A stretch of DNA of 64,000 bases from an uncultured Candidatus Sumerlaeota bacterium (lineage in GTDB: Bacteria > Sumerlaeota > Sumerlaeia > MVZB01 > JAJFLK01): assembly GCA_964598765.1 (NCBI GenBank), contig CAZRCZ010000001.1, forward strand, positions 342,327-406,326. Direction: 5' to 3'. This document shows positions 38,630 to 64,000 of this stretch, in pieces (the first letter of the stretch is position 1; every line of letters begins with the position of its first letter). The notes beneath the pieces are model-generated. The model did not search any database, was not told where the DNA came from, and saw only the letters and a list, made by a program, of their open reading frames with translations. The translations under genes were made by a program, and so were the position numbers.

Positions 38630-39946
38630 TTAATCCCCGCGATGATGATTTTTCAATTCCTGCATCGAAAGATGAAGGAGCCGTTGTTTGAGGCGGTGTT
38701 GCGCGGCGCGGATTTTTTCGCGGGACGATTCGGACAGATCGCGTTCCATGTCCGTTTGGATTTCGTCAAAAACCTCGTCGAAATGTTTTTTCAAACGCTC
38801 CAGCGCCGGGGCGAGCGAAACCGCCTGAAGCTTGGATCGAAATTTTTCGATCTCCTGCTCGATTAACTCCCACGCTTTCTGCGCGGCGGCGGTCCGTTTG
38901 GCTCGATTCTCGGCGATGATTCCTTCGAGATGGCTGATGTCCAAGAGCGTGACGCCGGGGATGGATCCGATGGCGTGGTCCAGAATGCGCGGGACCGCCG
39001 CGTCAATGAGGCAGACCCGGCGATTTTCGGACCCGGGACCGCGAAGGCTCTCGAACATCGCGCGCGTGACAAGAAAATTCGGCGCGAAAGCCGCGCCGAG
39101 AATCAGATCGGCCTGACGGATCGCGGGAGCCATTTGCGGAATCGGCACGATTTCGGCGTTCAGTCCGCGCGCGACCTCCTGAGCCTTTTCCACCGTGCGG
39201 TTCACGATCAGCAACTTGGCGGGACGACGCTCGGCGATGGCTTCGGCGGCGACGCGCCCGACTTTCCCCGCGCCGATGACGACGCAAACTTTTCCCTCGA
39301 ATGATCCAAGAATTTGCTCGGCGCGGAGCGTCGCGGCCTTGGCGACGGAAAGCGTGCCGACGTTCAAATCGGTTTCGGTCCGGATGCGTTTGGAGCATCG
39401 GTTGGCCGCTTCGATGAGACGATGCAAGTTTGCTCCGGCCATGCCCGTCTGTTTGCTCATTTCATACGCCTGCCCGACCTGCGATTTGATCTCGTTTTCG
39501 CCGAGGATCATCGAATCCAATCCGGCCTCGACCGCGAAGAAATGGCGGACGGCTTCGAGGTCTTCATAATTGTAGAGCGGCGGAACGTGATCCGGCTCCA
39601 ATTTCCCTCCAGCGAGCGAGAGAAAAAATTCGCGCAAGGTTTCGATGAAATTTTCCTCCAGCGGACTATAGACGTAAATTTCGGTTCGATTGCAGGTCGA
39701 AAGAACCAAGGCCTCCCCGGCGAGTCCCTCGTTCCGCAGGCGTTCCAGCGTTTGTAGGCATCGTTCCGGCGCGAGCGCGAATTTCTCGCGGACGCCGATG
39801 GCCGCGCGATCTTGGTTCACGCCGCACACAAAAAGGGTCGAGGTGGATGTGGTCGGGACGGAGTGTGTCTCTCGATCCTTCACGCGCAAATCCTCTCCCT
39901 CGCCCGGCTGTATGGACTTCGCGGAATGTTGAGTCGGTCGGGATCT
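38630..39946 (-). CDS. hemA: Glutamyl-tRNA reductase
   Basis: [20 protein letters not shown]...[14 protein letters not shown] and NADPH-binding domain. ATG 39946 overlaps stop of upstream hemY-like gene (ATGA). Confidence 0.9.
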
Positions 39947-41394
39947 CATGAAGGTCTGCCCGCCACAACGCTGATTTTTTGCGCCTGCGTCCGCGCTAAT
40001 TCGATGCGGTCGTTGATCGAGACGCCTTGCCGCCAGTTGCCGAAAAAATGAAGCCCCGGATGGCGGCGCTCCACGCCTTCGATCAACGCTTCCACCTCGA
40101 AATAATCCATTCCATATCGCGGAATGGCCCGGTTCCATCGCTCGATGTGGATCGCCTTTGCCTTGCCGTTCCAGTCGAGCGCGAATCCGAGATCATGACG
40201 GACCACCTTGAGTATTTCTTCGTCGCTGAGGTTGATCGCGGAAGGATCGAGATCGCCGCCGAGCATGACCGTCAGCGCGGCGCAACCGGCGGGCGCGCGT
40301 CCGGGAAAGATGTTGGAATTGAAAATCGTTCCCAGAATCCGCAATCCCTGATCGCGGGCGACAAGAAATCCGAATCCGGAGGGAATTTTCAGATCGCCGA
40401 CCTCAACGCCAAGGCCGACGCAAATCAGGGGGCAATAGGGAATGGCCTTTAATCGCGACGCCAATTCCGGCTCGAAATGTTCGATCAGCTTCCCGGCCGA
40501 TTGCGTTTCGGAGCTAAGGATGACTAGCTTCGCCCGAAACACTGTTTCTTTTCCCCGCAGTCGGCCCGTGATTTGAAAACCACCGGAATCCGATCCGGCC
40601 ATGATTTCGCAAACCTCCGCTTCCGGTCGGTAGGAGTCTCCGAGAAAATCCGCAAGGGAGTCGGTCAATTGCGCAATACCCTTTTGGAATGAAACGAGAT
40701 GAGTTTCCTTGGATGAGGCGCCGTCTTTCGAGGTAGCGCGTTGCGTCTTCATTCGACTAAAGAAACCCCGGATCACGCTTCGGTGATCAGCCTCAAATTC
40801 CTTCAAGGTTGGGAACGAAGCGCGCGCGCTCATCTGCGCCGGATCGCCTGCCCAAATCCCCTGAACCATCGGCAGGAATGCTCGATGATAAATTTCCTTT
40901 CCCAACCGGCGCACGACGAAATCCTTGAGCGTTTCATCGGCGTCCACGGGGGAAATCCAAGCTTCGCGGGCGAGGCGACACTTTGCTCCAAACGAAAGCA
41001 AGGAGGAGCGGATCAAACTCAGTGGACCCGTCGGAACAATGTGAAGACGGTTGTCGCGCCAAATGTAGCGGTTCTGCGATTTCAGAGGCGCGCGAACCGT
41101 TTGATCTTCCATCCCGGCCAAGTTGAGCAGTTCGTTAAACGCCGCGGATTTGTCCAGAATCGTATTGGGGCCCCGCTCAAAGAGAAATCCGTCCGCTTCA
41201 ATCGAACCGATGACCCCGCCCGGGTGATCGGATTTTTCGAGAACCAAGACGGCCATGCCCGATTTCTTCAGCCATGCGGCGAGAGACAGACCGGAAATTC
41301 CGCCGCCGACGATCATGACGGGTTCATTCGCCGGCGCGGAATCTTCAGGCCGGGGTCTTTGCGAAGAAGAAGAGGTTGCCATCGCCGTCGCCAC
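39946..41394 (-). CDS. hemY: FAD-dependent protoporphyrinogen/coproporphyrinogen oxidase (HemY family)
   Basis: N-terminal FAD-binding VMIVGGGISGLSLAAWL and amine-oxidase-like fold in a heme operon; cannot distinguish PgoX from CgoX by eye. Confidence 0.75.
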   Translation of the reverse strand: MATAMATSSSSQRPRPEDSAPANEPVMIVGGGISGLSLAAWLKKSGMAVLVLEKSDHPGGVIGSIEADGFLFERGPNTILDKSAAFNELLNLAGMEDQTVRAPLKSQNRYIWRDNRLHIVPTGPLSLIRSSLLSFGAKCRLAREAWISPVDADETLKDFVVRRLGKEIYHRAFLPMVQGIWAGDPAQMSARASFPTLKEFEADHRSVIRGFFSRMKTQRATSKDGASSKETHLVSFQKGIAQLTDSLADFLGDSYRPEAEVCEIMAGSDSGGFQITGRLRGKETVFRAKLVILSSETQSAGKLIEHFEPELASRLKAIPYCPLICVGLGVEVGDLKIPSGFGFLVARDQGLRILGTIFNSNIFPGRAPAGCAALTVMLGGDLDPSAINLSDEEILKVVRHDLGFALDWNGKAKAIHIERWNRAIPRYGMDYFEVEALIEGVERRHPGLHFFGNWRQGVSINDRIELARTQAQKISVVAGRPS

Positions 41395-41404
41395 GTTTGA
41401 GTCC

Positions 41405-42820
41405 TCAGAGCGTCCGGGAATAAAGCGGCCGTTTGCTCGCCGCTTGTTGCCGTTTTAGATGCGCGTCAAAGAGCATCGCGACGTTGCGGACGAAAAGCCG
41501 CCCCATGAACGAAAGACGGATCGAATCGCGCTCATTGACGAGCAATTCATCGGCGATCATCGGCGCGAGCGACTGAAGTTCGTCCTCGAAGTAGCGATTG
41601 AAATCAATATGAAAATCCTCGCTGATGCGGAGTTTGTCAATGCGGTCCTTGCACATCAAATCGCCGATAACGCGACGGCGAATTTGATCGTCTTCGTTCA
41701 AGATCAGGCCGCGCTCGATTGGAAATCGCCCCGAGTCCAAAGATTCCGAATAGGCGGTCAGCTTCTTGACGTTCTGCGCGAACATCTCGCGGACCGAACT
41801 GATCGAAGAAACGCCCATCGCGATCAGATCGGTTCCTGCGCGCGTGGTGAAACCCATGAAATTGCGATGCAGGGTTCCTCCATTGAACGCCCGCGCAAGC
41901 TCGTCGTCGGGGAGAGCGAAGTGATCCATGCCGATATAACGATAACCCGCCTCGGTAAATCGGTCGTGCGCGGCGAGAAAAATTCTCAACTTCGCCTCGC
42001 CATCCGGCAAGGAGGCCGGATCGAGCGTCCGCTGATGCGCGAGTCGTTGCGGCAAAAAAGCAAAGTTGTAAAGCGCGATTCGGTCGGGGCGCGAGGTCAA
42101 AACTTTTTCGAGCGTCTCGGAAAAAGTTTCCTCCGTTTGATAGGGCAAGCCGTAAATCAAATCGTAGTTGATTCCGGAGAATCCGACCTCACGGGCGAGC
42201 CGCGTGATTGCGTCCGTTCGCTCGTAACTTTGGAGCCGATGGACAGCGCGTTGCGTCCGTTCGTTGAAATCCTGAACTCCCATCGAAAGGCGGTTGAATC
42301 CAAGTTGCGCCAGCGTCCGAATTTGCTCGTCGGTTGTGATCGGCGGATGAATCTCGATGGAATTTTCGCAGTCGGAGGCGAGATGAAACCGGTCCGCGAT
42401 CATGGCGTGGGTCCGCCGAATCTGGTCGCAATCCAAATAAGTCGGCGTTCCGCCTCCCCAATGAAATTGGACGACCGGCCGCGACGGATCATTGTGACGC
42501 GCGTGCAACTCAATCTCGCGCTCCAGCTTTTCCAAGTATGGATCGGAGACCTCGCGTCCCTTCGCGCTGATGATCACGTTGCACGCGCAAAACGTGCAGT
42601 GCTCCTCGCAGAAGGGAATATGCAGGTAGATGGAAAGGGGGCGTCCCTCCCAATCGGCCTTGACCCGATCCAGATGCCGCGCGAATTCCTCGTGGCCGAC
42701 CGATTCGTTCCACTCCGGTGCGGTCGGATAGGACGTGTAGCGCGGTCCGGCCAAATCGTATCGGCGGAGAAATTCCCGATCGAGATCGCGCAGGCGGCGC
42801 GTTTCGTTAACAGACGCCAT
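41405..42820 (-). CDS. hemN: Oxygen-independent coproporphyrinogen III oxidase-like radical SAM protein (HemN family)
   Basis: GPRYTSYPTAPEW, radical-SAM cluster motif HIPFCEEHCTFCACN, 471 aa. Confidence 0.85.
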   Translation of the reverse strand: MASVNETRRLRDLDREFLRRYDLAGPRYTSYPTAPEWNESVGHEEFARHLDRVKADWEGRPLSIYLHIPFCEEHCTFCACNVIISAKGREVSDPYLEKLEREIELHARHNDPSRPVVQFHWGGGTPTYLDCDQIRRTHAMIADRFHLASDCENSIEIHPPITTDEQIRTLAQLGFNRLSMGVQDFNERTQRAVHRLQSYERTDAITRLAREVGFSGINYDLIYGLPYQTEETFSETLEKVLTSRPDRIALYNFAFLPQRLAHQRTLDPASLPDGEAKLRIFLAAHDRFTEAGYRYIGMDHFALPDDELARAFNGGTLHRNFMGFTTRAGTDLIAMGVSSISSVREMFAQNVKKLTAYSESLDSGRFPIERGLILNEDDQIRRRVIGDLMCKDRIDKLRISEDFHIDFNRYFEDELQSLAPMIADELLVNERDSIRLSFMGRLFVRNVAMLFDAHLKRQQAASKRPLYSRTL

Positions 42821-43898
42821 AGCGTTTCACCGCCTCGACGAGCCTGCACGCATTTTCCACGGGCGTTTGGGGAAGAACGCCATGACCGAGATTGAAAACG
42901 TGTCCGGTGGCCGGAGGGAACTGCGCGAACAAATCACGGACCGCCAGTTCGACCGTGTCGGGATTGGTGTAGAGAACCAAAGGGTCGAGATTGCCTTGAA
43001 GCGACGCGCCTCCGTTGGGGCGCTGGCTTTCCAGATTGCGTTCCTCATCATTGACAATCGCGCGCGCAGAGGCGAGATCAAGTCGCCAATCAATGCTGAG
43101 GCAATCGGCTCCGATGCGGGCGAGCGACGGGAGGTAAGGCGCGCAACCGTTGACGTAAACGATTACCGGCGCGCCCAGTCCTCGGACCGATTCGATGATC
43201 CGGCGAATCCACTTTCCGGAAAATCGCTCGTAATCCGACTGCCGCAGGGCCGAACCCCACGTGTCGAAAATCTGAACGGCGTCGGCTCCGGCCTCGATCT
43301 GAATCCGAAGATACTGCGCCGCGACTTGGGTAATGCGCTCCAGAATTGAATCGAGCAGATTTGGTTTTTCCCAACGCAAGCGGAGGATGGATTCAAAATT
43401 GCGCGACATGACCCCTTCGATCCAATAGGCCGCGAGCGTCCACGGCGCGCCGACGAATCCGAGAATGGGGAAATCGCGTCCCGCGCGTTCGCGGACGGTT
43501 TGGATCGTCCGCGCGACCGGTTCCTCGGCGTCCAATGCGCGTCCGCGAAGATTCCGCAAATCTTCTTCGGAACGAATCGGGTTGAGAATCTGCGGACCGC
43601 GGTCGTCGAATTTGATCTTCGCTCCCGCCGACTCCAGCGGAATGAGGATGTCGTTGAAAATGATGATCGCGTCCGCATCGAGCGCTTCGACGGGTTGGAT
43701 CGAAACCTCCGTCGCCGCGCGAGGCGTCTTGCAAAGCGTCAGGAAATCGTATTCCTTTCGGACCTTCTGATATTGCGGCAAATAACGTCCCGCTTGCCGC
43801 ATCAACCAAACGGGAACGCGATCCACCGGTTTTCGCCGCAGTGCGTTGAGCAACCGCTCGCGCGGGGTGAGAACGGGTTTGGTTGGATTAAGATTCAT
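42807..43898 (-). CDS. hemE: Uroporphyrinogen decarboxylase
   Basis: RRKPVDRVPVWLMRQAGRYLPQY signature; start at ATG 43898 (MNLNPTK). Overlaps hemN start by 14 nt. Confidence 0.9.
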   Translation of the reverse strand: MNLNPTKPVLTPRERLLNALRRKPVDRVPVWLMRQAGRYLPQYQKVRKEYDFLTLCKTPRAATEVSIQPVEALDADAIIIFNDILIPLESAGAKIKFDDRGPQILNPIRSEEDLRNLRGRALDAEEPVARTIQTVRERAGRDFPILGFVGAPWTLAAYWIEGVMSRNFESILRLRWEKPNLLDSILERITQVAAQYLRIQIEAGADAVQIFDTWGSALRQSDYERFSGKWIRRIIESVRGLGAPVIVYVNGCAPYLPSLARIGADCLSIDWRLDLASARAIVNDEERNLESQRPNGGASLQGNLDPLVLYTNPDTVELAVRDLFAQFPPATGHVFNLGHGVLPQTPVENACRLVEAVKRYGVC

Positions 43899-44150
43899 GA
43901 TACGATCGCGGCCAAGGGAGAAGCGGGTCTGCCAAAAGCTCCTTCCCCCTAGGCACACACTTCCATCATGCCCGTCGCGCCGAATCGCGGTCAAGCGAGA
44001 AGGAACGAACGGCGATATCGCGGGAGTAATCATGGCGTTGAAAGCGGGCCTTTGACCGAAGCGCCTGCCTCACTCTCTACAACCTGTTCAAGAGTTGAAC
44101 TGAAACCGGGAAAACGCCAATATGATTTCGAGAAGCTCGCAAGACAAGGC

Positions 44151-49155: not shown

Positions 49156-52100
49156 TCACTTCAGCGTCGAGATGAACTCCACCAAATCGCGCAATTCGGA
49201 TTTGGCGAGATTTTCAGAAATGTCTTCGGGCATCGAGGAGAGATTGTGCTGGCGGGAGACGATTTGATCCTTGGGGAGCGTCATCTTCGTCACTCGCGGG
49301 CCTTTAGTGGCTTCCGACTCCCACTTTTCGTTCTTATCCTTCTCCTTCTCATCCTCCTTTTCGTCCTTTTTTGCTTCCGTCCCCTTCGGCGCATCCTCCT
49401 CCTCGACAAATTCCTCCCCTTCTTCTTGGACTGGAATCTCCAGTAGAATCTGGTTTCCTTCTTCTTCCAGAACCCGTCCGGCGTATTCCTTGCCGTCTTT
49501 CATCGTCAGCGTGACGTTCTCAAATCCCTCGGCGATTTGCGCGTTGGGATGAAGAATGGATTCGAGGATGTATTCGCGCCCCTTGCGTGTGCCGACGCTC
49601 GGTAGCTCCGGCCCGACTTCGCCTCCCACTTTGCTTTTAACCGTATGGCATTTCTGGCAGGTGACTTCAGTTTTCTCGAAGAAAATTTTCTCTCCCCGCT
49701 CGGCGTTGCCGCCGAAGAGCGACTCGCGGAATCCGCCGAGCGGATCATCCGTGGAAATCGCGGATTGATACCGCGCCAACTTCATTTTGATCTCATCGTT
49801 CGGATGCTTCTGGGCCGCTTCGAGCAGATCGAGTTGAATTTCGGCGGGGACTTTTTTCGCCGCCAGCGAATCGAGCCACGTCGAGAGCAGTTGATCGAAT
49901 TGCGCTCCCTCCAAATCGGCGAGCGTCGCCAGCGCCCCTTGCTTTTCGAGGATGCTTCCCCCGTTGAGCGCCGTCGCCAAGACGCTCGCCGCTCCGGCGG
50001 GATCGAGTTTGGCGAGTTGAGCGTTCCCCTCGTTGCGTAGCGCGTCGGCGGCGTCGGCGCGGGCGAGGTTCACCGCCTTGGCGAGGTTGGGGTCCTCGAA
50101 TTCGCCGAGCGCCCTCAGCGCCTCAACTCGCGCCTCGGTTGGCTTTTTCGCGTCGGAGAGCAACGCAAAGAGGGGCGCGCCCGCCTCAGCGACTTGATAC
50201 TGTCCGGCGAGTTGCGCGCAGGCCTGCAAAATTTTGTTCGGCGCGGAGCGGAGAAGTTCGGGCAGGATCGGCCTCAAGGCGCGAGCCGCGGTTTCGGGAT
50301 CGCGCTTGGGCAGAGGACGCCAGACGCCGATCACGCGGTCGCGCCCCGACGGAGACGCCCAATCTTTTAACTCGCCGAGCGCTTCGAGCCTCACGACCTC
50401 GGGCGGCTCCGAGCGCGACGCGAATTCGGCGATGGCTTTGGCGTTCTCCGCGCCGCCCAATCGGAAATTCGCGTTGAGAATCCTCAACATCACCGGCTTG
50501 CCGACCACGTCGGCGTCGGCCATTTTCAGAATGTTTTCGCTCTGGCCGATCATCCCCGCCAGTTCGGGTAGGGCGTCGGCAATCGGAACGTCGTTGATCG
50601 CATGAGCCGCCTCGCTGACGAGCGCCGGATCGCGGTCCTTGAGGAATCGCGCAATTTCCGGTTTTTGCATTCGACGCAAGGCGAGCAAAATTCCCATCCG
50701 CACCGCCGACGATTCGTCATCGGCGTGTTTCAGCAACGCCTCCGCGTCGCCAATCCCGACCAATCCCATCACTCCGGCATGGCGCAGATACGGATCGGCG
50801 TCGTTATTTTCGCGAAGCATTTCCGCCAGCGCGGAGATGTATCTGGTTTTAATTTCTTCCGATGGAGGCATCGCCGGAACGCCGGGATTGACGATCTTGC
50901 CAAGACTCATCGCCGTAAAAAAACGGACGCGAAGACTTGCATCTTTGAGTAGATCCAATAATTCCGTCAAATGTGACTCATTTGAATTTAATATTACCGA
51001 ATGTATGTCGCTCAAGACCTTGATTGCTTGGGCACGAATTTCGGCGTTTTCGTCTTTCAAGCACTCAACCAAGACGGCCTCTCCGCGATTGCGCGGATCA
51101 GACAAAAATTCTCCAAGTCCTTTGCCCAACAGTTCGCCTGCCGCTTTTTCCCCTTCTGGTCCTAACTTAAGATCGTTTCCGGAAATTAAAGTAGAGACGA
51201 CAAGAGAAAAAATGAATTGGAACTCTTTCTCTTTATCTTGGGGAGATTGGGCTACGGCTTCGGATTTCGGCTCGACCTTAGGTCCGAGTTTGCTCAGAAC
51301 TTCTCCGATTCCCCAAATTGCGTGGAGCCGTGCCCATGGGCTTCGAGAGCATTTCTCAGCCAATTGTAAAAGCGCCCGTGCTTGAGCATCCGGGTATTCT
51401 CCCGATGTCCAAGAATTTTTGAACTCCTCGGAGTAGGTTTGCGGACTTATGAATGCAATCGTGCCCAGCGTTCCAAATAGCATAAAATCCGAATCACGCC
51501 CAGTCTGGAGCCTTCTCAAATCCCTCCGTGCCAACTCATACTGCGCCTCGAACCGCACTCTTTGATCCTGGTGCGCGAGCAGTTCCCCCAACTCATAATC
51601 GCTGTAGCGATCCAGATTCCCCGCGAGGATTTCCTTTGCCTCCTTGACGAGCGGATCGTTTTTCACCGCGGGATCGAAGGCGTGATAGAGGCGTCCCTTG
51701 TGCGGCTGATCCCAACCTTCGGTCCAATCGGTCCAATAAATGCCCCCCTCAGCGCCGAAATCCACGTCGGTCACGAGGGACCCCTTGAGGAAATCCTCGC
51801 GGTCGGTCATCTCGAACGAGGCCCCCTTGGGTTGGACCTTGAAGGTGTGAATCAGGCTTATCCCCGCTCCGCCGCGAAAATCGCACAGAAAAAAATGATC
51901 CTTGTATCGTTCCGGCATTCCCGTGCCGGGATAAAACGCGAACCCCGCCGGTCCGGCGGCGACGTGCGCGACGGGAGGCACGATATACGCGGCCTGTCCC
52001 TTCCACGGGAGGTGCCAGATTTTTTCGCCGTTCCACGGACCGCGCTGGACCGGCTTTTCGATCCACTGGTAGCCGATCCGCCAGCCGCTGTCGCCCCCCT

Positions 52101-53061
52101 CGACGCAATAGACGAGCCGCGCCTTGTCGCCGGCGTCGGAGTTGTTGTCGCCGGTGAAGAGATTGCCGTAGTCGTCAAAGACGAGTTCCTGCGGGTTGCG
52201 GAGTCCGGTGCAGAACGGCTCCAATTGCGAGCCGTCGGGATTGCAACGGAAGACCGCGCCGGTGTCGGGAAGGTCAATGACGCGCCCTTCGGTTTCGATA
52301 TGCGCGCCGCGGTCGCCGATGCTGAAATAAAGTTTGCCGTCGGGGCCTTTGCGCAGACCGTGGAGATCGTGGCCGAGAAAATTAAAGTGGACGCCGTAGC
52401 CCGTGCTGAGCGATTTGCGTTCGTCGGCCTTGCCATCGCCGTCGGTGTCGCGCAGTTTCCAGAGATCCGGGATGCAGGTGTAGTAAATGTCCCCTTGATC
52501 GGCGAGTAATCCCGCGCCGACGCCGTCCTCCGCGTGGTTGAATCCGTCGGCATAAACGACGGCGCGGTCGGCTTTGCCGTCGCCGTCGGTGTCTTCGAGC
52601 AGACGGATGCGCTCGTGCTGTTTGTCGTAGTCCGCGAACGACTCGCCGAGGTTTTTCTTCATCGCGGCGAGCCGATCCGCGACGGTCCGGCTCGCCAGAT
52701 CGTCGTCGAGCCAGAGGCGGTGCGTCCGCATGTCAAGCACGCCGTCATAGAGGCGGAACGTCTCGCCGACGTAAAACCGCCCCTTGTTGTCCAAGCAGAA
52801 ACAGACCGGATTGGCGAGCATCGGCTCGGCGGCGAAAAGCTCGATCTTGAATCCGTCGGCGATTTTGAATTTCTTGATCGCCTTTTCCCCTTCGTCGGAG
52901 GCGGGGTTGATTTGGGGATGATAGGCGGGGTCTTCGGCAAAGGCGAAGGTAAAAAGGGAAAATAAAATCACCACAGAGGCGCAGAGGCACAGAGTAGGGG
53001 CGACCCGTTGAGTCGCCCGCTTTCTTCTCTGTGTCTCTGTGACTCTGTGGTTTTTCTTCAT
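49156..53061 (-). CDS. Large exported protein with beta-propeller 'membrane-bound dehydrogenase'-like domain, HEAT repeats and C-terminal cytochrome-c (CxxCH) domain
   Basis: 1301 aa; N-terminal signal-like segment, HEAT-repeat middle, CQKCH heme-binding motif near C-terminus, acidic Lys/Glu-rich tail. Confidence 0.75.
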   Translation of the reverse strand: MKKNHRVTETQRRKRATQRVAPTLCLCASVVILFSLFTFAFAEDPAYHPQINPASDEGEKAIKKFKIADGFKIELFAAEPMLANPVCFCLDNKGRFYVGETFRLYDGVLDMRTHRLWLDDDLASRTVADRLAAMKKNLGESFADYDKQHERIRLLEDTDGDGKADRAVVYADGFNHAEDGVGAGLLADQGDIYYTCIPDLWKLRDTDGDGKADERKSLSTGYGVHFNFLGHDLHGLRKGPDGKLYFSIGDRGAHIETEGRVIDLPDTGAVFRCNPDGSQLEPFCTGLRNPQELVFDDYGNLFTGDNNSDAGDKARLVYCVEGGDSGWRIGYQWIEKPVQRGPWNGEKIWHLPWKGQAAYIVPPVAHVAAGPAGFAFYPGTGMPERYKDHFFLCDFRGGAGISLIHTFKVQPKGASFEMTDREDFLKGSLVTDVDFGAEGGIYWTDWTEGWDQPHKGRLYHAFDPAVKNDPLVKEAKEILAGNLDRYSDYELGELLAHQDQRVRFEAQYELARRDLRRLQTGRDSDFMLFGTLGTIAFISPQTYSEEFKNSWTSGEYPDAQARALLQLAEKCSRSPWARLHAIWGIGEVLSKLGPKVEPKSEAVAQSPQDKEKEFQFIFSLVVSTLISGNDLKLGPEGEKAAGELLGKGLGEFLSDPRNRGEAVLVECLKDENAEIRAQAIKVLSDIHSVILNSNESHLTELLDLLKDASLRVRFFTAMSLGKIVNPGVPAMPPSEEIKTRYISALAEMLRENNDADPYLRHAGVMGLVGIGDAEALLKHADDESSAVRMGILLALRRMQKPEIARFLKDRDPALVSEAAHAINDVPIADALPELAGMIGQSENILKMADADVVGKPVMLRILNANFRLGGAENAKAIAEFASRSEPPEVVRLEALGELKDWASPSGRDRVIGVWRPLPKRDPETAARALRPILPELLRSAPNKILQACAQLAGQYQVAEAGAPLFALLSDAKKPTEARVEALRALGEFEDPNLAKAVNLARADAADALRNEGNAQLAKLDPAGAASVLATALNGGSILEKQGALATLADLEGAQFDQLLSTWLDSLAAKKVPAEIQLDLLEAAQKHPNDEIKMKLARYQSAISTDDPLGGFRESLFGGNAERGEKIFFEKTEVTCQKCHTVKSKVGGEVGPELPSVGTRKGREYILESILHPNAQIAEGFENVTLTMKDGKEYAGRVLEEEGNQILLEIPVQEEGEEFVEEEDAPKGTEAKKDEKEDEKEKDKNEKWESEATKGPRVTKMTLPKDQIVSRQHNLSSMPEDISENLAKSELRDLVEFISTLK
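52968..53052. repeat. Imperfect palindrome of tandem CACAGAG units (overlaps 5' end of the large dehydrogenase ORF)
   Basis: Arms atcaccacagaggcgcagaggcacagag and ttctctgtgtctctgtgactctgtggtt with an inner gggcgac-ccgttga-gtcgccc hairpin. Confidence 0.85.
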
Positions 53062-53064
53062 TGT

Positions 53065-54015
53065 TCAATCCTTCAAATACTTCGACAAATCGGGCGAGAT
53101 CAATTCCTTGATCTCCGGCGTCTCCAGATTTTCCTTCGTCACCAATTCCAATCGCGTGCGGATCGTCTTCTCGACTTTTTGTCCGCGCAACTGCGCGACC
53201 ATCGCCCGGACCCCTTGCTCGCCGATGTTGACGGGGTCCTGAACGACCAGACCCTGAATCTCATCCTTGCGCAGGGCTTCGATCAGGCGGTCGGTTGCGT
53301 CGAAGCCGACGAACCTGATTTTGCCCGCGCGACCGGCTCCGCGCAAAGCCAAAAGCATTCCATAGGTCACCGGCGCGTTGGGGCAAAAGACGCCGTCAAT
53401 TTGCGGAAAGCGATTGAGCAAATCCTCTCCCTTCTGTTGCGCCCCTTCGACCGTCGCTCCGGCAAATTGATTGGAGGAGATGATTTCGATTTTCGGGAAT
53501 TGTTTTTTGATCCCCGCGAGAAATCCTTCCTCCCGATTCGTGTTGCTCGCCGAGCCTTCGACGTAACGGAGAAGGACGACCTTCCCCTGACCGTTCAACA
53601 ATTTGCCGAGCCGCTCGGCCGCCAATTCGCCGCCGCGAGAATTGTCGGTCGCGACAAAACTGACATGCTCGTCCCCCTGCAAATCGGAATCAATCACGAC
53701 GGTCGGGATTCCGGCCTTTTTCGCGTCGCGCACGGGATGGACCAGCGCCTTATCGTCGAGCGGAGCCAAGACAATGCCGTTCACTTTTCGGCTGATAAAA
53801 TCCTCGACGACCTGAATCTGTTGCTCGCGGTCGTCTTCGCGCTGGGGTCCCTTCCAAATGATCTTCACGTTCAGATCGCGCGCGGCCTTTTCCGCTCCGG
53901 CATGGACTGATTTCCAAAATTCGTGCGTCGTGCCTTTGGGAATGACGGCGATGGTTTGAGCGAGCGCGAAGCGGCCCATGAGCGACAGGCTTAACAGGCA
54001 TATGTTGATCTTCAT
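53065..54015 (-). CDS. Periplasmic sugar-binding protein (ABC transporter substrate-binding, RbsB/LacI-type fold)
   Basis: Signal peptide MKINICLLSLSLMGRFALA; type I periplasmic binding fold motifs (KVNGIVLAPLD, IPTVVIDSD). Start at ATG 54015. Confidence 0.75.
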   Translation of the reverse strand: MKINICLLSLSLMGRFALAQTIAVIPKGTTHEFWKSVHAGAEKAARDLNVKIIWKGPQREDDREQQIQVVEDFISRKVNGIVLAPLDDKALVHPVRDAKKAGIPTVVIDSDLQGDEHVSFVATDNSRGGELAAERLGKLLNGQGKVVLLRYVEGSASNTNREEGFLAGIKKQFPKIEIISSNQFAGATVEGAQQKGEDLLNRFPQIDGVFCPNAPVTYGMLLALRGAGRAGKIRFVGFDATDRLIEALRKDEIQGLVVQDPVNIGEQGVRAMVAQLRGQKVEKTIRTRLELVTKENLETPEIKELISPDLSKYLKD

Positions 54016-54031
54016 GTTTATTCCCTTCTTA

Positions 54032-54113
54032 TTCACCACAGAGACGCAGAGGTACAGAGAAATACTTGGACGCTTTTCACTTCTTCTCTGTGTCTCCTTG
54101 CCTCTGTGGTGAA
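54032..54113. repeat. Imperfect palindrome of tandem CACAGAG units
   Basis: Arms ttcaccacagagacgcagaggtacagagaa and ttctctgtgtctccttgcctctgtggtgaa; immediately upstream of the sugar-binding-protein start. Confidence 0.85.
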
Positions 54114-54766
54114 TCATCTTTTACTTTTCGATACCTCCCCACAAACACCACCGGTTCCGCGGTCGCCTTATCACCGTAAATACCGCTCCCCTCAACGCAA
54201 TGCGCATCCCCCTCCACCCACTCGCGGAACGACTCAAGAACGCTCGGCGCGGAGCGGGACCAGAACAAATAATTCCCTTCGATCTTCCCAGTGCGAAAAA
54301 TCACCTCGCCGCCGTTTTTGCGGATGATCTTGCACCGGATCGTTTTCAGTTCGAAGTCCGCGCTGTAGAGCGCGCTCTCGCGTACCGTCTTGCCGGTCTT
54401 GGGATCGGTGATCTCGAAATGCCCCTCCTGCTGAAATTCCTTGTCGGCGAGGACGTGGCGATAATCCTGTCGGACTTTGACCTTGGAGACCGGCTCGCCG
54501 GTGAATTTGTAGGTGGCGAGCTCTCCCTCCCAAACTCCATCCCATGCCTTGAAGGGAGAAGCGACCGATTGCGCCGTCGCGGGAACCGAGAGGGCTTTGA
54601 TGAGCGCCAAGACGCCAAACCCCGAGATCCACAGAAGGAGAACTATGACCAACAGACGCGAAACCCAGAGGGGATAAGCGCGTTCCGATTTGTCTTCAGA
54701 AGATTCCAAGGATTTTTTTCCGTTTCTTGTCAGAGGCGGGCTTCTTTGCGTTGCCGTTTTCCGCAT
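54077..54766 (-). CDS. Hypothetical membrane-anchored protein
   Basis: 229-aa ORF with one N-terminal TM helix; overlaps upstream peptidase gene end and the 54032-54113 repeat; start uncertain. Confidence 0.4.
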   Translation of the reverse strand: MRKTATQRSPPLTRNGKKSLESSEDKSERAYPLWVSRLLVIVLLLWISGFGVLALIKALSVPATAQSVASPFKAWDGVWEGELATYKFTGEPVSKVKVRQDYRHVLADKEFQQEGHFEITDPKTGKTVRESALYSADFELKTIRCKIIRKNGGEVIFRTGKIEGNYLFWSRSAPSVLESFREWVEGDAHCVEGSGIYGDKATAEPVVFVGRYRKVKDDSPQRQGDTEKK

Positions 54767-61980: not shown

Positions 61981-62487
61981 ATGCTGTATTGGTGGCTGAT
62001 TTTAATTCTGCTCGTCTATTTTTTTGTCTGTCTTCTTTTAATCGGCGTCATTCTGATCCAATCGGGCAAAGGGGGAGGATTGTCGAGTCTGGCGCAGTCC
62101 ACGGGCGGAATTTCGGACGCGCTGGGCGCGACGGGAGCGGAAAGAACGCTCAACAAGATCACCTCCTTCATCGCGGTCAGTTTCATGGTGTTGGCGATTT
62201 TTCTTTCCATCGCCACAAGTTGCAATAAACAGGGACATTCGGCGTCGAAATTATTGGGCGAGCCTTCTCCGACCAAGCCGAACGCTCCGGGCGCGACGGC
62301 TCCCGCTGTCCCCCCGGCCAATCAAACCGGGGATGAAATTCCGGTTCAAGCGCCGCCAGCACCCGCGCCTCCCGCGAATCCCCCGCAACAAGGCGCGAAT
62401 GCTCCGGCAACCGTATCCGCTCCGCCGCCTGCTCCGGCTCAGCCCGCGCCCGCTTCGCCTCCGGCGGCCCCGGCGCAGGAGAAATAA
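61981..62487 (+). CDS. secG: Preprotein translocase subunit SecG with Pro/Ala-rich C-terminal extension
   Basis: N-terminal TM helix followed by ILIQSGKGGGLS (SecG signature) and second TM; ~90-aa low-complexity tail. Confidence 0.75.
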   Translation: MLYWWLILILLVYFFVCLLLIGVILIQSGKGGGLSSLAQSTGGISDALGATGAERTLNKITSFIAVSFMVLAIFLSIATSCNKQGHSASKLLGEPSPTKPNAPGATAPAVPPANQTGDEIPVQAPPAPAPPANPPQQGANAPATVSAPPPAPAQPAPASPPAAPAQEK

Positions 62488-62526: not shown

Positions 62527-63390
62527 ATGACCTACGGCACTCCCCTTGACGAACCCCAACTTTCCGAGTGGGAAGCCCGCGAGCAACTCTGCGAGGTGGG
62601 ACGCTGGCTTTGGCAACGTCAATACGTCGAGGCTAACGGCGGAAACATGTCGTATCGCCTATCCGACGGGCGCATCCTCGCCACGCCGACGATGATCAGC
62701 AAAGGAATGATGAAGCCCGAGGACATGGTCATTCTCGACATCAACGGCAATCAACTGGCGGGAAAACGGAACAAAACCTCCGAAATTCTCGTTCATCTCT
62801 TGATTCTCAAGAACCGTCCCGATATTCGTTGCGTGATCCATTGTCACCCGCCTCATGCGACGACCTTTGCGATTTCCGGCAAAGCGTTGCCCAAGTGCGT
62901 CCATCCGGAACAGGAGGTATTCTTGGGGGAAGTGCCGATCGCGCCCTATGAAACACCCGGAACGCAAAAAGTCGCCGACACGCTTTTGCCCTACGTCAAT
63001 GACTTCAATGTTTTTCTTCTGGCAAGCCACGGCGCGGTCTCGGCCGGTCGCGGAATTCTCGACGCCTATTGGAAAACCGAAATCGTCGAAGCCTATTGCC
63101 GCTTGATTATTTTGTCGCAGGCCCTTGGCGGACCAACGACGCTCAACCAACAACAGATGAGCGAACTTTTGCAGATCAAGCGAAACCTCGGCATCCATGA
63201 CCGCCGCCATTCGGATCCTTCCGCCGTTCCGTGTGATCGGCCTTCTCCCGCTCCACCCGAATTTTCACCCGTCGAGCCTCCCTGTTCCTGTTCGTCCGAA
63301 TCCAAGGCCCAAACCTCAGTTTTGCCGAATCCCGACGCCGAATTGGTCAAGCGCGTGACCGAAGCGGTGATGAAAAAATTACGGGGATAA
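62527..63390 (+). CDS. Class II aldolase/adducin-family protein with ~55-aa C-terminal extension
   Basis: Class II aldolase core (EANGGNMSYR, HCHPPHATTFAISG, SHGAVSAG) followed by Pro/Ser-rich linker and terminal helix DAELVKRVTEAVMKKLRG. Confidence 0.8.
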   Translation: MTYGTPLDEPQLSEWEAREQLCEVGRWLWQRQYVEANGGNMSYRLSDGRILATPTMISKGMMKPEDMVILDINGNQLAGKRNKTSEILVHLLILKNRPDIRCVIHCHPPHATTFAISGKALPKCVHPEQEVFLGEVPIAPYETPGTQKVADTLLPYVNDFNVFLLASHGAVSAGRGILDAYWKTEIVEAYCRLIILSQALGGPTTLNQQQMSELLQIKRNLGIHDRRHSDPSAVPCDRPSPAPPEFSPVEPPCSCSSESKAQTSVLPNPDAELVKRVTEAVMKKLRG

Positions 63391-63462: not shown

Positions 63463-64000
63463 ATGACCGAACCGACCGCCGACCGCCATCCTTCCCATCT
63501 TGCGCGTCTCTACGACCGTCTGGTTCTCGAAGGGCCGATGCCCGCGCTCATCGTGTTCTCGTTTCTCGTCGTCACGGCGCTTTTGGGGTTCCGCATCCGA
63601 AATTTTCAGGTGGACGCTTCCGCCGATTCCATCTGTCTCGAAACAGACAAGGATCTTCAGTATTACGATCAGTCGCGGCTCGTCTTCGGAAGCGATGAAT
63701 ACATCGTCGTCGTCGTGCAAGCCCCCTCGATGGAGGACCTTCTGTCAGAACATTATTTGTCCATTCTCAGCGAATTCACGGGGGAGATCGCCAAGGCTAA
63801 GGACGTGGAATCCACGCTGAGCATTCTGGACGTTCCGCTGTTCCACAGTCCCGATATTTCGGTGCTTCAGTTGGCCAAGGGCTACAACACGCTCTCGATG
63901 TTGCTCCGCCCCGACGTGAGTCCGGCGAAGAAGAAACAAATCCGCGAAGGAGCCAAACAGGAACTGATCGAAAGCCCGCTCTTCAACGATTACATCATCA
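63463..64000 (+). CDS. RND-superfamily / MMPL-like exporter, N-terminal part (continues beyond window end)
   Basis: Open frame from ATG 63463 to window end; N-terminal TM helix then periplasmic-loop-like sequence (DASADSICLETDKDLQYYDQSRLVFGSDEYIVVVVQ) typical of MMPL/HpnN-type exporters. Not in ORF track because it runs off the edge. Confidence 0.55.
   Translation, partial: MTEPTADRHPSHLARLYDRLVLEGPMPALIVFSFLVVTALLGFRIRNFQVDASADSICLETDKDLQYYDQSRLVFGSDEYIVVVVQAPSMEDLLSEHYLSILSEFTGEIAKAKDVESTLSILDVPLFHSPDISVLQLAKGYNTLSMLLRPDVSPAKKKQIREGAKQELIESPLFNDYII

Follow-up and report, generated by a model that had tools for sequence, protein, structure and literature searches.

Can an enzyme gene that lies apart from every shell-protein gene still supply cargo to a bacterial microcompartment (BMC)? 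This question is raised by a 64,000-nucleotide stretch of contig CAZRCZ010000001.1 (the window, by which we mean the whole stretch of DNA that was analysed), which carries close to its 3' end a gene for a class II aldolase with a C-terminal extension. The initial annotation, made from the sequence alone, likened this extension to an encapsulation peptide (EP), the kind of tail that targets cargo enzymes into microcompartments, and considered the gene to be either satellite cargo or an aldolase with an unrelated tail. The results described below lead us to regard the tail as a homologue of the EP found on aldolases of the planctomycete and verrucomicrobial microcompartment (PVM), and to consider it likely that this EP-tagged aldolase is encoded by a satellite cargo gene of a fragmented microcompartment. 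The parts of the gene referred to throughout are the following:

62527-63390, + strand: class II aldolase with C-terminal extension, complete coding sequence (from the list of open reading frames; ATG start, 287 aa)
62581-63108, + strand: PF00596 class II aldolase domain, residues 19-194 (Pfam, E 2.4e-47)
63199-63234, + strand: post-core segment D225-R226-R227 ... C236, invariant in 28 of 28 orthologues
63235-63333, + strand: hypervariable Pro/Ser/Cys-rich linker, residues 237-269, predicted to be disordered (from structure prediction, identity and codon-level comparison)
63334-63387, + strand: terminal amphipathic helix DAELVKRVTEAVMKKLRG, residues 270-287, putative encapsulation peptide (from AlphaFold2, hydrophobic moment, conservation and an EP profile)

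Architecture of the aldolase and its tail

The class II aldolase identity proposed in the initial annotation stands, as PF00596 is recognised with the E-value given above at a score of 161.6 bits against a cut-off of 22.2, with profile positions 1-182 of 183 being covered. The closest solved structures are those of fuculose-phosphate aldolases (FucA), which are tail-less proteins of ~207-222 aa and match residues 13-222 at an E-value of 1e-26; because the FucA structures stop at residue 222, residues 223-287 constitute an extension that is absent from cytosolic FucA. Judged by its residues the enzyme looks catalytically intact: E86, H105, H107 and H168, lying in the motifs SEIxxHL, HCHPPHA and SHG, show no variation among the 28 orthologues and fall, in alignments with the solved FucA structures, on SELxxHL, HxHxP and NHG. 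These four residues presumably correspond, at a constant offset of 13, to Glu73 (catalytic) and to His92, His94 and His155 (Zn ligands) of E. coli FucA. The start MTYGTPLDEP is common to the aldolase orthologues in the same 28-sequence alignment, and a protein identical to that of the window (100%, P0001) was found on an NCBI contig of 454,576 bp.

The invariant segment that follows the core, with its DRR and Cys236, possibly serves in metal binding or in a redox role; at the place where the group of the window aldolase has these residues, Planctomycetes carry ENCDLCGN. For the remainder of the tail, a Pro/Ser-rich linker of ~35 aa and a terminal amphipathic helix had been noticed within 63223-63390, a span which corresponds to A233-G287 plus the stop codon, and both were recovered: a 37-residue stretch, A233-P269, is followed by the helix exactly as it had been quoted. 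Taken to begin where the core stops, the linker comprises residues 223-269, i.e., 47 aa including 11 Pro, 9 Ser and 3 Cys (6% Cys), and among the 28 orthologues its length varies from 24 to 55 aa.

Structure prediction with AlphaFold2, for which the alignment of the 28 sequences (orthologues 59-85% identical) served as input, bears out the helix, which is placed at residues 271-286 with a predicted local distance difference test score (pLDDT) of ~80, the score of residues 240-267 being below 50. The highest helical hydrophobic moment of the whole protein (0.69, calculated over 15 residues at a time) falls at 272-286, and a moment equal to that observed is reached by 2.3% of the shuffles of AELVKRVTEAVMKKL. 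According to a hand count over DAELVKRVTEAVMKKLR, the helix is made up of 29% I/L/V and 47% charged or polar residues, with 0% Pro and 0% aromatic residues; it is strongly charged (K/R/D/E at 8 of 17 residues) and its aliphatic face is narrow.

Core, linker and helix differ in how they have been retained. Mean pairwise identity among the 28 orthologues is 0.77 for the core, 0.23 for the linker and 0.61 for the helix, in which A280 and V281 are invariant and R275 and V277 are conserved in at least 90% of the sequences. The same ranking was obtained at the codon level within the secG-linked clade (aldolase genes situated next to secG, see below), where the window gene was compared with those of loci L096, L001 and L007: the ratio of nonsynonymous to synonymous differences per site (pN/pS), with synonymous sites being saturated, amounted to 0.09-0.25 in the core, 0.6-0.86 in the linker and 0.25-0.41 in the helix. 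The linker drifts almost neutrally, whereas the helix is held by purifying selection; the observation of a distinct tail is confirmed. A chance low-complexity tail devoid of function is barely credible on these grounds, and this explanation was rejected: the linker is indeed of low complexity and nearly neutral, but the helix, predicted with a pLDDT of ~80, is conserved across ~120 homologues from at least two phyla, and conservation, shuffle tests and pN/pS taken together effectively refute it.

Kinship with planctomycete encapsulation peptides

The EP of aldolases has been described as an amphipathic C-terminal helix of ~17 aa that 21 of the 23 BMC-associated class II aldolases possess; the linker before it, of 23-81 aa, is unconserved and has an unusually high Cys content (5.5%) (PMC4594438). 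The published layout of such tails, an amphipathic helix of ~12-17 aa behind a poorly conserved linker of 23-81 aa (PMC4594438), is reproduced in the window aldolase by the 47-aa linker and the helix at 271-286, and the composition of both parts lies within or just beyond one standard deviation of the values published for aldolase EPs and linkers (PMC4594438).

Homologues, taken as the best 120 database matches, are 259-352 aa long, compared with ~215 aa for tail-less FucA; the exceptions are three proteins of 234-244 aa, which stop before the helix and may be truncated. In the group of the window aldolase (the Sumerlaeota type) the helix reads D[PA]ELVRRVTEAVLKRL, and in the planctomycete type FE[SA]LVQRITDQVMxAM; the helix type of the aldolase tail has also been written as 'ELVRRVTEAVLRRL'-like. 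The homologue from Singulisphaera acidiphila (P0075, 45% identity) can be aligned with the window aldolase from end to end, over residues 4-299 and with the tail included. Its gene belongs to a canonical PVM locus with the order DeoR-PTAC-3xBMC-H-AckA-BMC-P-AldDh-BMC-P-x-BMC-P-aldolase, in which PTAC denotes phosphotransacylase and AldDh aldehyde dehydrogenase. Comparison with known aldolase EPs was also made by means of a profile hidden Markov model trained on the C-terminal peptides of 63 planctomycete aldolases, against which the last 30 residues of the window protein scored 9.3 bits, a value attained by one of 2000 shuffles.

Shell genes accompany nearly all of the related planctomycete-type aldolases that were recovered. 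Genome loci were obtained from GTDB species representatives through a profile search with the 28 sequences, for which the matches listed were all planctomycete and included no Sumerlaeota genome, and metagenome contigs through a search with a single protein as the query, which yielded one close relative on a contig of 1.5 kb, the rest being of the planctomycete type. Among the matches listed, to which all planctomycete counts refer, BMC-H and/or BMC-P genes were found in the flanks of 75 of 80 genome loci and BMC-H or BMC-P genes beside 78 of 79 metagenome loci, i.e., at 153 of 159 loci in total. The exceptions, without shell genes, are loci on short contigs, one locus whose aldolase lies at the end of its contig, and two genuine orphans in which the tail persists. 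These two, the only shell-less ones with full 10-kb flanks and with the aldolase at 10001-~10900, are L083 (Planctomyces sp. ACE_PLA29) and L087 (Pirellulales JTS-AC232); as their aldolases retain an EP-like C-terminal helix, orphaned aldolases with a tag are a rare occurrence among Planctomycetes as well.

Given the end-to-end alignment with P0075, the EP profile score and the fit to the published description, the tail is a true homologue of the EP on PVM aldolases. The resemblance suggested in the initial annotation has in this way been substantiated, and the unrelated tail which it had offered as an alternative is excluded by homology in both position and sequence.

Shell genes in Sumerlaeota and the setting of the aldolase gene

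If the tail is an EP, shell proteins are to be looked for, and within the phylum Sumerlaeota they were found adjoining a tagged aldolase. In Ca. Sumerlaeia GCA_026415575.1 (locus L006, JAOAGV010000052.1, 1732-3286), the gene for P0048, a tagged aldolase 48% identical to that of the window, has two BMC-P genes immediately behind it, and no BMC-H gene was found near them. Seven more pairs of aldolase and BMC-P clusters, all of them in clade C, were matched through identical contig sizes. Because of this direct succession in GCA_026415575.1 and the seven further pairs, the aldolase is, as read from gene order, physically linked to shell genes inside Sumerlaeota.

Elsewhere in the phylum shell genes are dispersed. 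Under the name FRAG6, scattered shell genes have been reported from genomes of Sumerlaeota/BRC1 and Hydrogenedentes (Sutter et al. 2021, PMC8217296 Suppl. Data 2), the parts being a BMC-P triplet, together or apart, a BMC-H gene with a flavoprotein gene and a PduS-T pair; no typical BMC enzymes are encoded near the shell genes and the function is unassigned (PMC8217296). Many of the BMC-P clusters recovered by us carry the names Sumerlaeota, Sumerlaeia or Sumerlaeaceae, and the arrangements seen include a BMC-P triplet standing alone (L090, GCA_964454265.1, 10001-12262), a lone BMC-P gene between secA and waaA-gcpE (L092 and L093) and, in Ca. Sumerlaea chitinivorans BY40 (CP030759.1, L178, 10001-10312), a lone BMC-P gene between an ADP-ribosylglycohydrolase gene and VanZ/gmk.

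Some further observations concern these loci. Downstream of the L090 triplet lies a PhdYeFM antitoxin and PIN toxin pair, and no typical microcompartment enzymes are encoded within 10 kb of it. P0151 and P0153 are BMC-P (PF03319) proteins of 184 aa, ~80 residues longer than usual, one of them being encoded on a 430,867-bp contig, and may be vertex proteins that have been fused or extended. In L008 and L009 (10001-10792), a SurA-like rotamase gene precedes the gene for a tagged aldolase of yet another clade, which is 54% identical to the window protein and has the tail ...IERIVRDLLRDRGITP; no shell genes were found there within 10 kb. The possibility that the BMC-P clusters P0188 and P0149 and the aldolase P0003 share one metagenome-assembled genome with P0015 was considered and rejected, as the four belong to different assemblies (GCA_964454265.1, GCA_964608095.1, GCA_964586185.1 and GCA_964463045.1, respectively).

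In the window itself the gene directly upstream of the aldolase is secG:

61981-62487, + strand: secG, 168 aa, with a Pro/Ala-rich C-terminal extension (PF03840; 39 bp upstream of the aldolase gene)

No terminator-like or promoter-like site was found between the two genes, and secG is the probable operon partner of the aldolase gene. The order pgk-secG-aldolase is present in L001 (GCA_964463045.1) and L007, whose aldolases are relatives at 68% and 64% identity, and the same secG-aldolase order is probably present in L180 (GCA_964586185.1, 81% identity); gene order thus marks out a lineage in which the tagged aldolase appears to have moved into a secG operon. The SecG protein of the window consists of a domain of ~75 residues (PF03840, residues 9-77) and a Pro/Ala-rich extension of ~90 residues; SecG is also long in the relatives (L001, 166 aa; L007, 136 aa), and a 176-aa protein in L180 is probably another example.

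This linkage brings in a different explanation of the helix, namely that it acts as a membrane or translocon anchor, or as an oligomerisation helix, tied to secG and unrelated to microcompartments. Amphipathic terminal helices can bind membranes, and secG lies close by, with no terminator in between, in a linkage that is conserved; the helix is, however, homologous to the EP of aldolases from shell loci, and its many charged residues and narrow aliphatic face are EP-like. Clade C, clade D and the Planctomycetes, moreover, are without the secG linkage and yet keep the helix. Since the helix thereby both predates and outlives the linkage to secG, we consider such an anchor very improbable.

Several findings weigh against the alternative that we favour, that of a satellite cargo gene. 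A tblastn search of the 64-kb window with six Singulisphaera and five Sumerlaeota shell proteins detected no shell gene (best E = 0.13), in agreement with the absence of shell-protein genes noticed in the initial annotation, and the flanks of the L001, L007 and L180 orthologues, up to 10 kb in length, contain none either (for L007 and L180, ~1 kb downstream was available). Among ~140 BMC-P clusters of the Sumerlaeota type, none is on the 454,576-bp contig of the window aldolase or on other secG-linked contigs: those of 169,693, 85,499, 53,042 and 13,576 bp could be paired with no BMC-P cluster, and no MBI37... accession is among the BMC-P matches. This would be unsurprising were the genes dispersed throughout a genome a few Mb in size. 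BY40, a holder of FRAG6, is without an aldolase (on its 3,289,105-bp contig) among the best 120 aldolase matches, so that at least some Sumerlaeota shells, those of Sumerlaeaceae, apparently operate without this EP-aldolase. The aldolase clade is linked to the phylum via one named match, MBI3735103.1, which is 84% identical and annotated as Candidatus Sumerlaeota bacterium. Finally, the aldolase scores below every NCBIfam equivalog cut-off, with 112.6 bits against 250 for FucA_Meth and 110.7 against 264 for a second FucA model, the top match being OxoTetrPhDc (123.7 bits, cut-off 250); its substrate can for this reason not be read from the sequence alone.

Some of these findings would also be accounted for if the tail were shell-independent or a relict, the shells having been lost or never having been present, and the helix being kept for self-association in a shell-less enzyme cluster or for contact with a partner enzyme. 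In favour of this, no genome in the secG-linked clade has been connected with a shell gene, and the distribution is partly complementary, BY40 having shells and no such aldolase among the best 120 matches; a housekeeping operon (secG, or pgk-secG in the relatives) is not where a gene of an inducible catabolic organelle would normally be expected, and EPs are thought to drive the aggregation of cargo besides binding to the shell (PMC4594438). On the other hand, the helix is under clear purifying selection next to a drifting linker and hence no relic in decay, shell genes occur widely in the phylum and adjoin the aldolase in a sister clade, and, as FRAG-type shell genes themselves sit singly among housekeeping genes, the context of the aldolase is not unusual. 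We therefore regard a shell-independent or relict tail as unlikely, if less so than a membrane anchor, and we infer, with good support, that the gene of the window is a satellite cargo gene.

The rest of the window is of a housekeeping character. Upstream of the aldolase gene lie accC, a gene for an HD protein and secG, and farther away genes for NAD synthase, peptidases, heme synthesis (a cluster), EF-G and a K+ transporter; a Pfam search of 24 window proteins recognised housekeeping genes only. When the window was searched by tblastn with 14 Singulisphaera PVM proteins and five Sumerlaeota BMC-P proteins, the aldolase was the sole match, and other PVM parts (PTAC, AldDh, AckA, DeoR and the 223-aa and 440-aa PVM proteins) were not found in it. 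The gene 3' of the aldolase (63464-64000, + strand) starts at 63464 and runs off the window; from its translation, the N-terminus looks like that of an MMPL/RND-type membrane transporter. This gene is not conserved in the relatives, L001 having a 371-aa protein of unknown function in its place. The heme-biosynthesis cluster (38630-44033, - strand) comprises glutamyl-tRNA reductase, a HemY-like amine oxidase, a HemN-like radical SAM protein and uroporphyrinogen decarboxylase; of the reading frames listed for it, the first and the second overlap by ~190 nt, which implies that one start codon is probably located farther downstream. A 1300-aa protein (49156-53061, - strand) combines a DUF7133/GSDH-like beta-propeller, HEAT repeats and a C-terminal cytochrome c domain, and its gene is adjoined by that of a periplasmic sugar-binding protein (53065-54117).

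Proposed role and comparison with known systems

Under the satellite cargo reading, the gene would encode a FucA-like, Zn-dependent class II aldolase of the PVM-type microcompartment lineage, whose last ~18 residues form an amphipathic helix on a disordered linker of ~47 residues and serve as its EP. The linker would give the helix the reach to dock on shell proteins and/or aggregate with other tagged cargo as the organelle assembles, and the aldolase would in this way become packaged in the shell. There, by analogy with the PVM (PMC4594438), it may cleave a deoxy-sugar phosphate (L-fuculose-1-P or L-rhamnulose-1-P) into dihydroxyacetone phosphate and lactaldehyde, the latter being kept within the shell while the former exits to glycolysis. 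The genes of the organelle would have become dispersed in this lineage of Sumerlaeota, with the aldolase gene being co-transcribed with secG and the shell genes located elsewhere, like loci of the FRAG6 type. Of this proposal, the shell genes elsewhere in the genome of the window, physical encapsulation and the substrate are inferred.

A further step, which we put forward tentatively and rate slightly below an even chance, is that in a subset of Sumerlaeota the EP-aldolase encoded behind secG is the missing signature enzyme of FRAG6, whose organelle would then be a fully dispersed, PVM-like metabolosome for deoxy-sugars and lactaldehyde. Were this the case, cargo and shell genes would be wired singly into housekeeping operons (the secG, secA/waaA and gmk neighbourhoods), which would imply constitutive rather than substrate-induced expression.

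Among known systems the closest is the PVM, in which the class II aldolase with its C-terminal EP is a signature enzyme according to Erbilgin et al. 2014, as cited in PMC4594438, and Aussignargues et al. 2015 (PMC4594438). The window aldolase belongs to the same Pfam family as the PVM enzyme, is 41-55% identical to it over the full length including the tail and shares the succession of core, unconserved Cys-containing linker and terminal amphipathic helix of ~17 aa, the helix sequences being recognisably related. The post-core motif is different, with DRR...C...P.P in the window aldolase and ENCDLCGNSLFREGY in Planctomycetes, and so is the setting: the PVM aldolase is encoded within a locus of shell, AldDh, PTAC and AckA genes, whereas the window gene follows secG and is accompanied by no organelle gene within the 64 kb. 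A location beside BMC-H (PF00936) and BMC-P (PF03319) genes is one of the marks of the PVM type, and because it is lacking here the window aldolase is best classed as an orphan or satellite representative of that type. With cytosolic FucA (PDB 1FUA and 6BTD) the enzyme has in common the fold family and the positions of the catalytic Glu and the His triad; unlike FucA (~215 aa, with neither linker nor helix), it carries both and falls below the NCBIfam FucA cut-offs.

In our search of the literature, we found nothing that links Sumerlaeota microcompartments to an aldolase or to fucose, nor any account of a fully orphaned EP-aldolase in a secG operon or of a link between an aldolase and FRAG6. 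The tag as such has already been described; what is new is the scattered arrangement and the possible link to FRAG6 only. FRAG6 (Sutter et al. 2021, PMC8217296) resembles the present case in that the phylum is probably the same and in that organelle genes stand singly among housekeeping genes; it differs, as described (PMC8217296), in that no aldolase is listed for it. If the aldolase is indeed cargo in Sumerlaeota, it would provide a first functional handle on organelles of the FRAG6 type, pointing to deoxy-sugar/aldehyde catabolism in an uncultured, polysaccharide-degrading phylum. Genome-wide searches for enzymes with a conserved EP under selection would, more generally, offer a route to the cargo of fragmented microcompartments.

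Precedents for EP-tagged class II aldolases that are split from the main locus exist in two other BMC types (Sutter et al. 2021). The satellite locus of the HO type I BMC consists of two BMC-P genes and an aldolase gene, which is the same arrangement as the aldolase and two BMC-P genes of the Sumerlaeia locus L006, and the ACI BMC has a PF00596 aldolase with a C-terminal EP, its AldDh being encoded on a satellite locus. Unlike in these two types, which belong to Myxococcota and Acidobacteria, the split in the window is complete, with no shell gene beside the aldolase; if the satellite cargo reading is correct, this would show how far the genes of an organelle can disperse while targeting persists.

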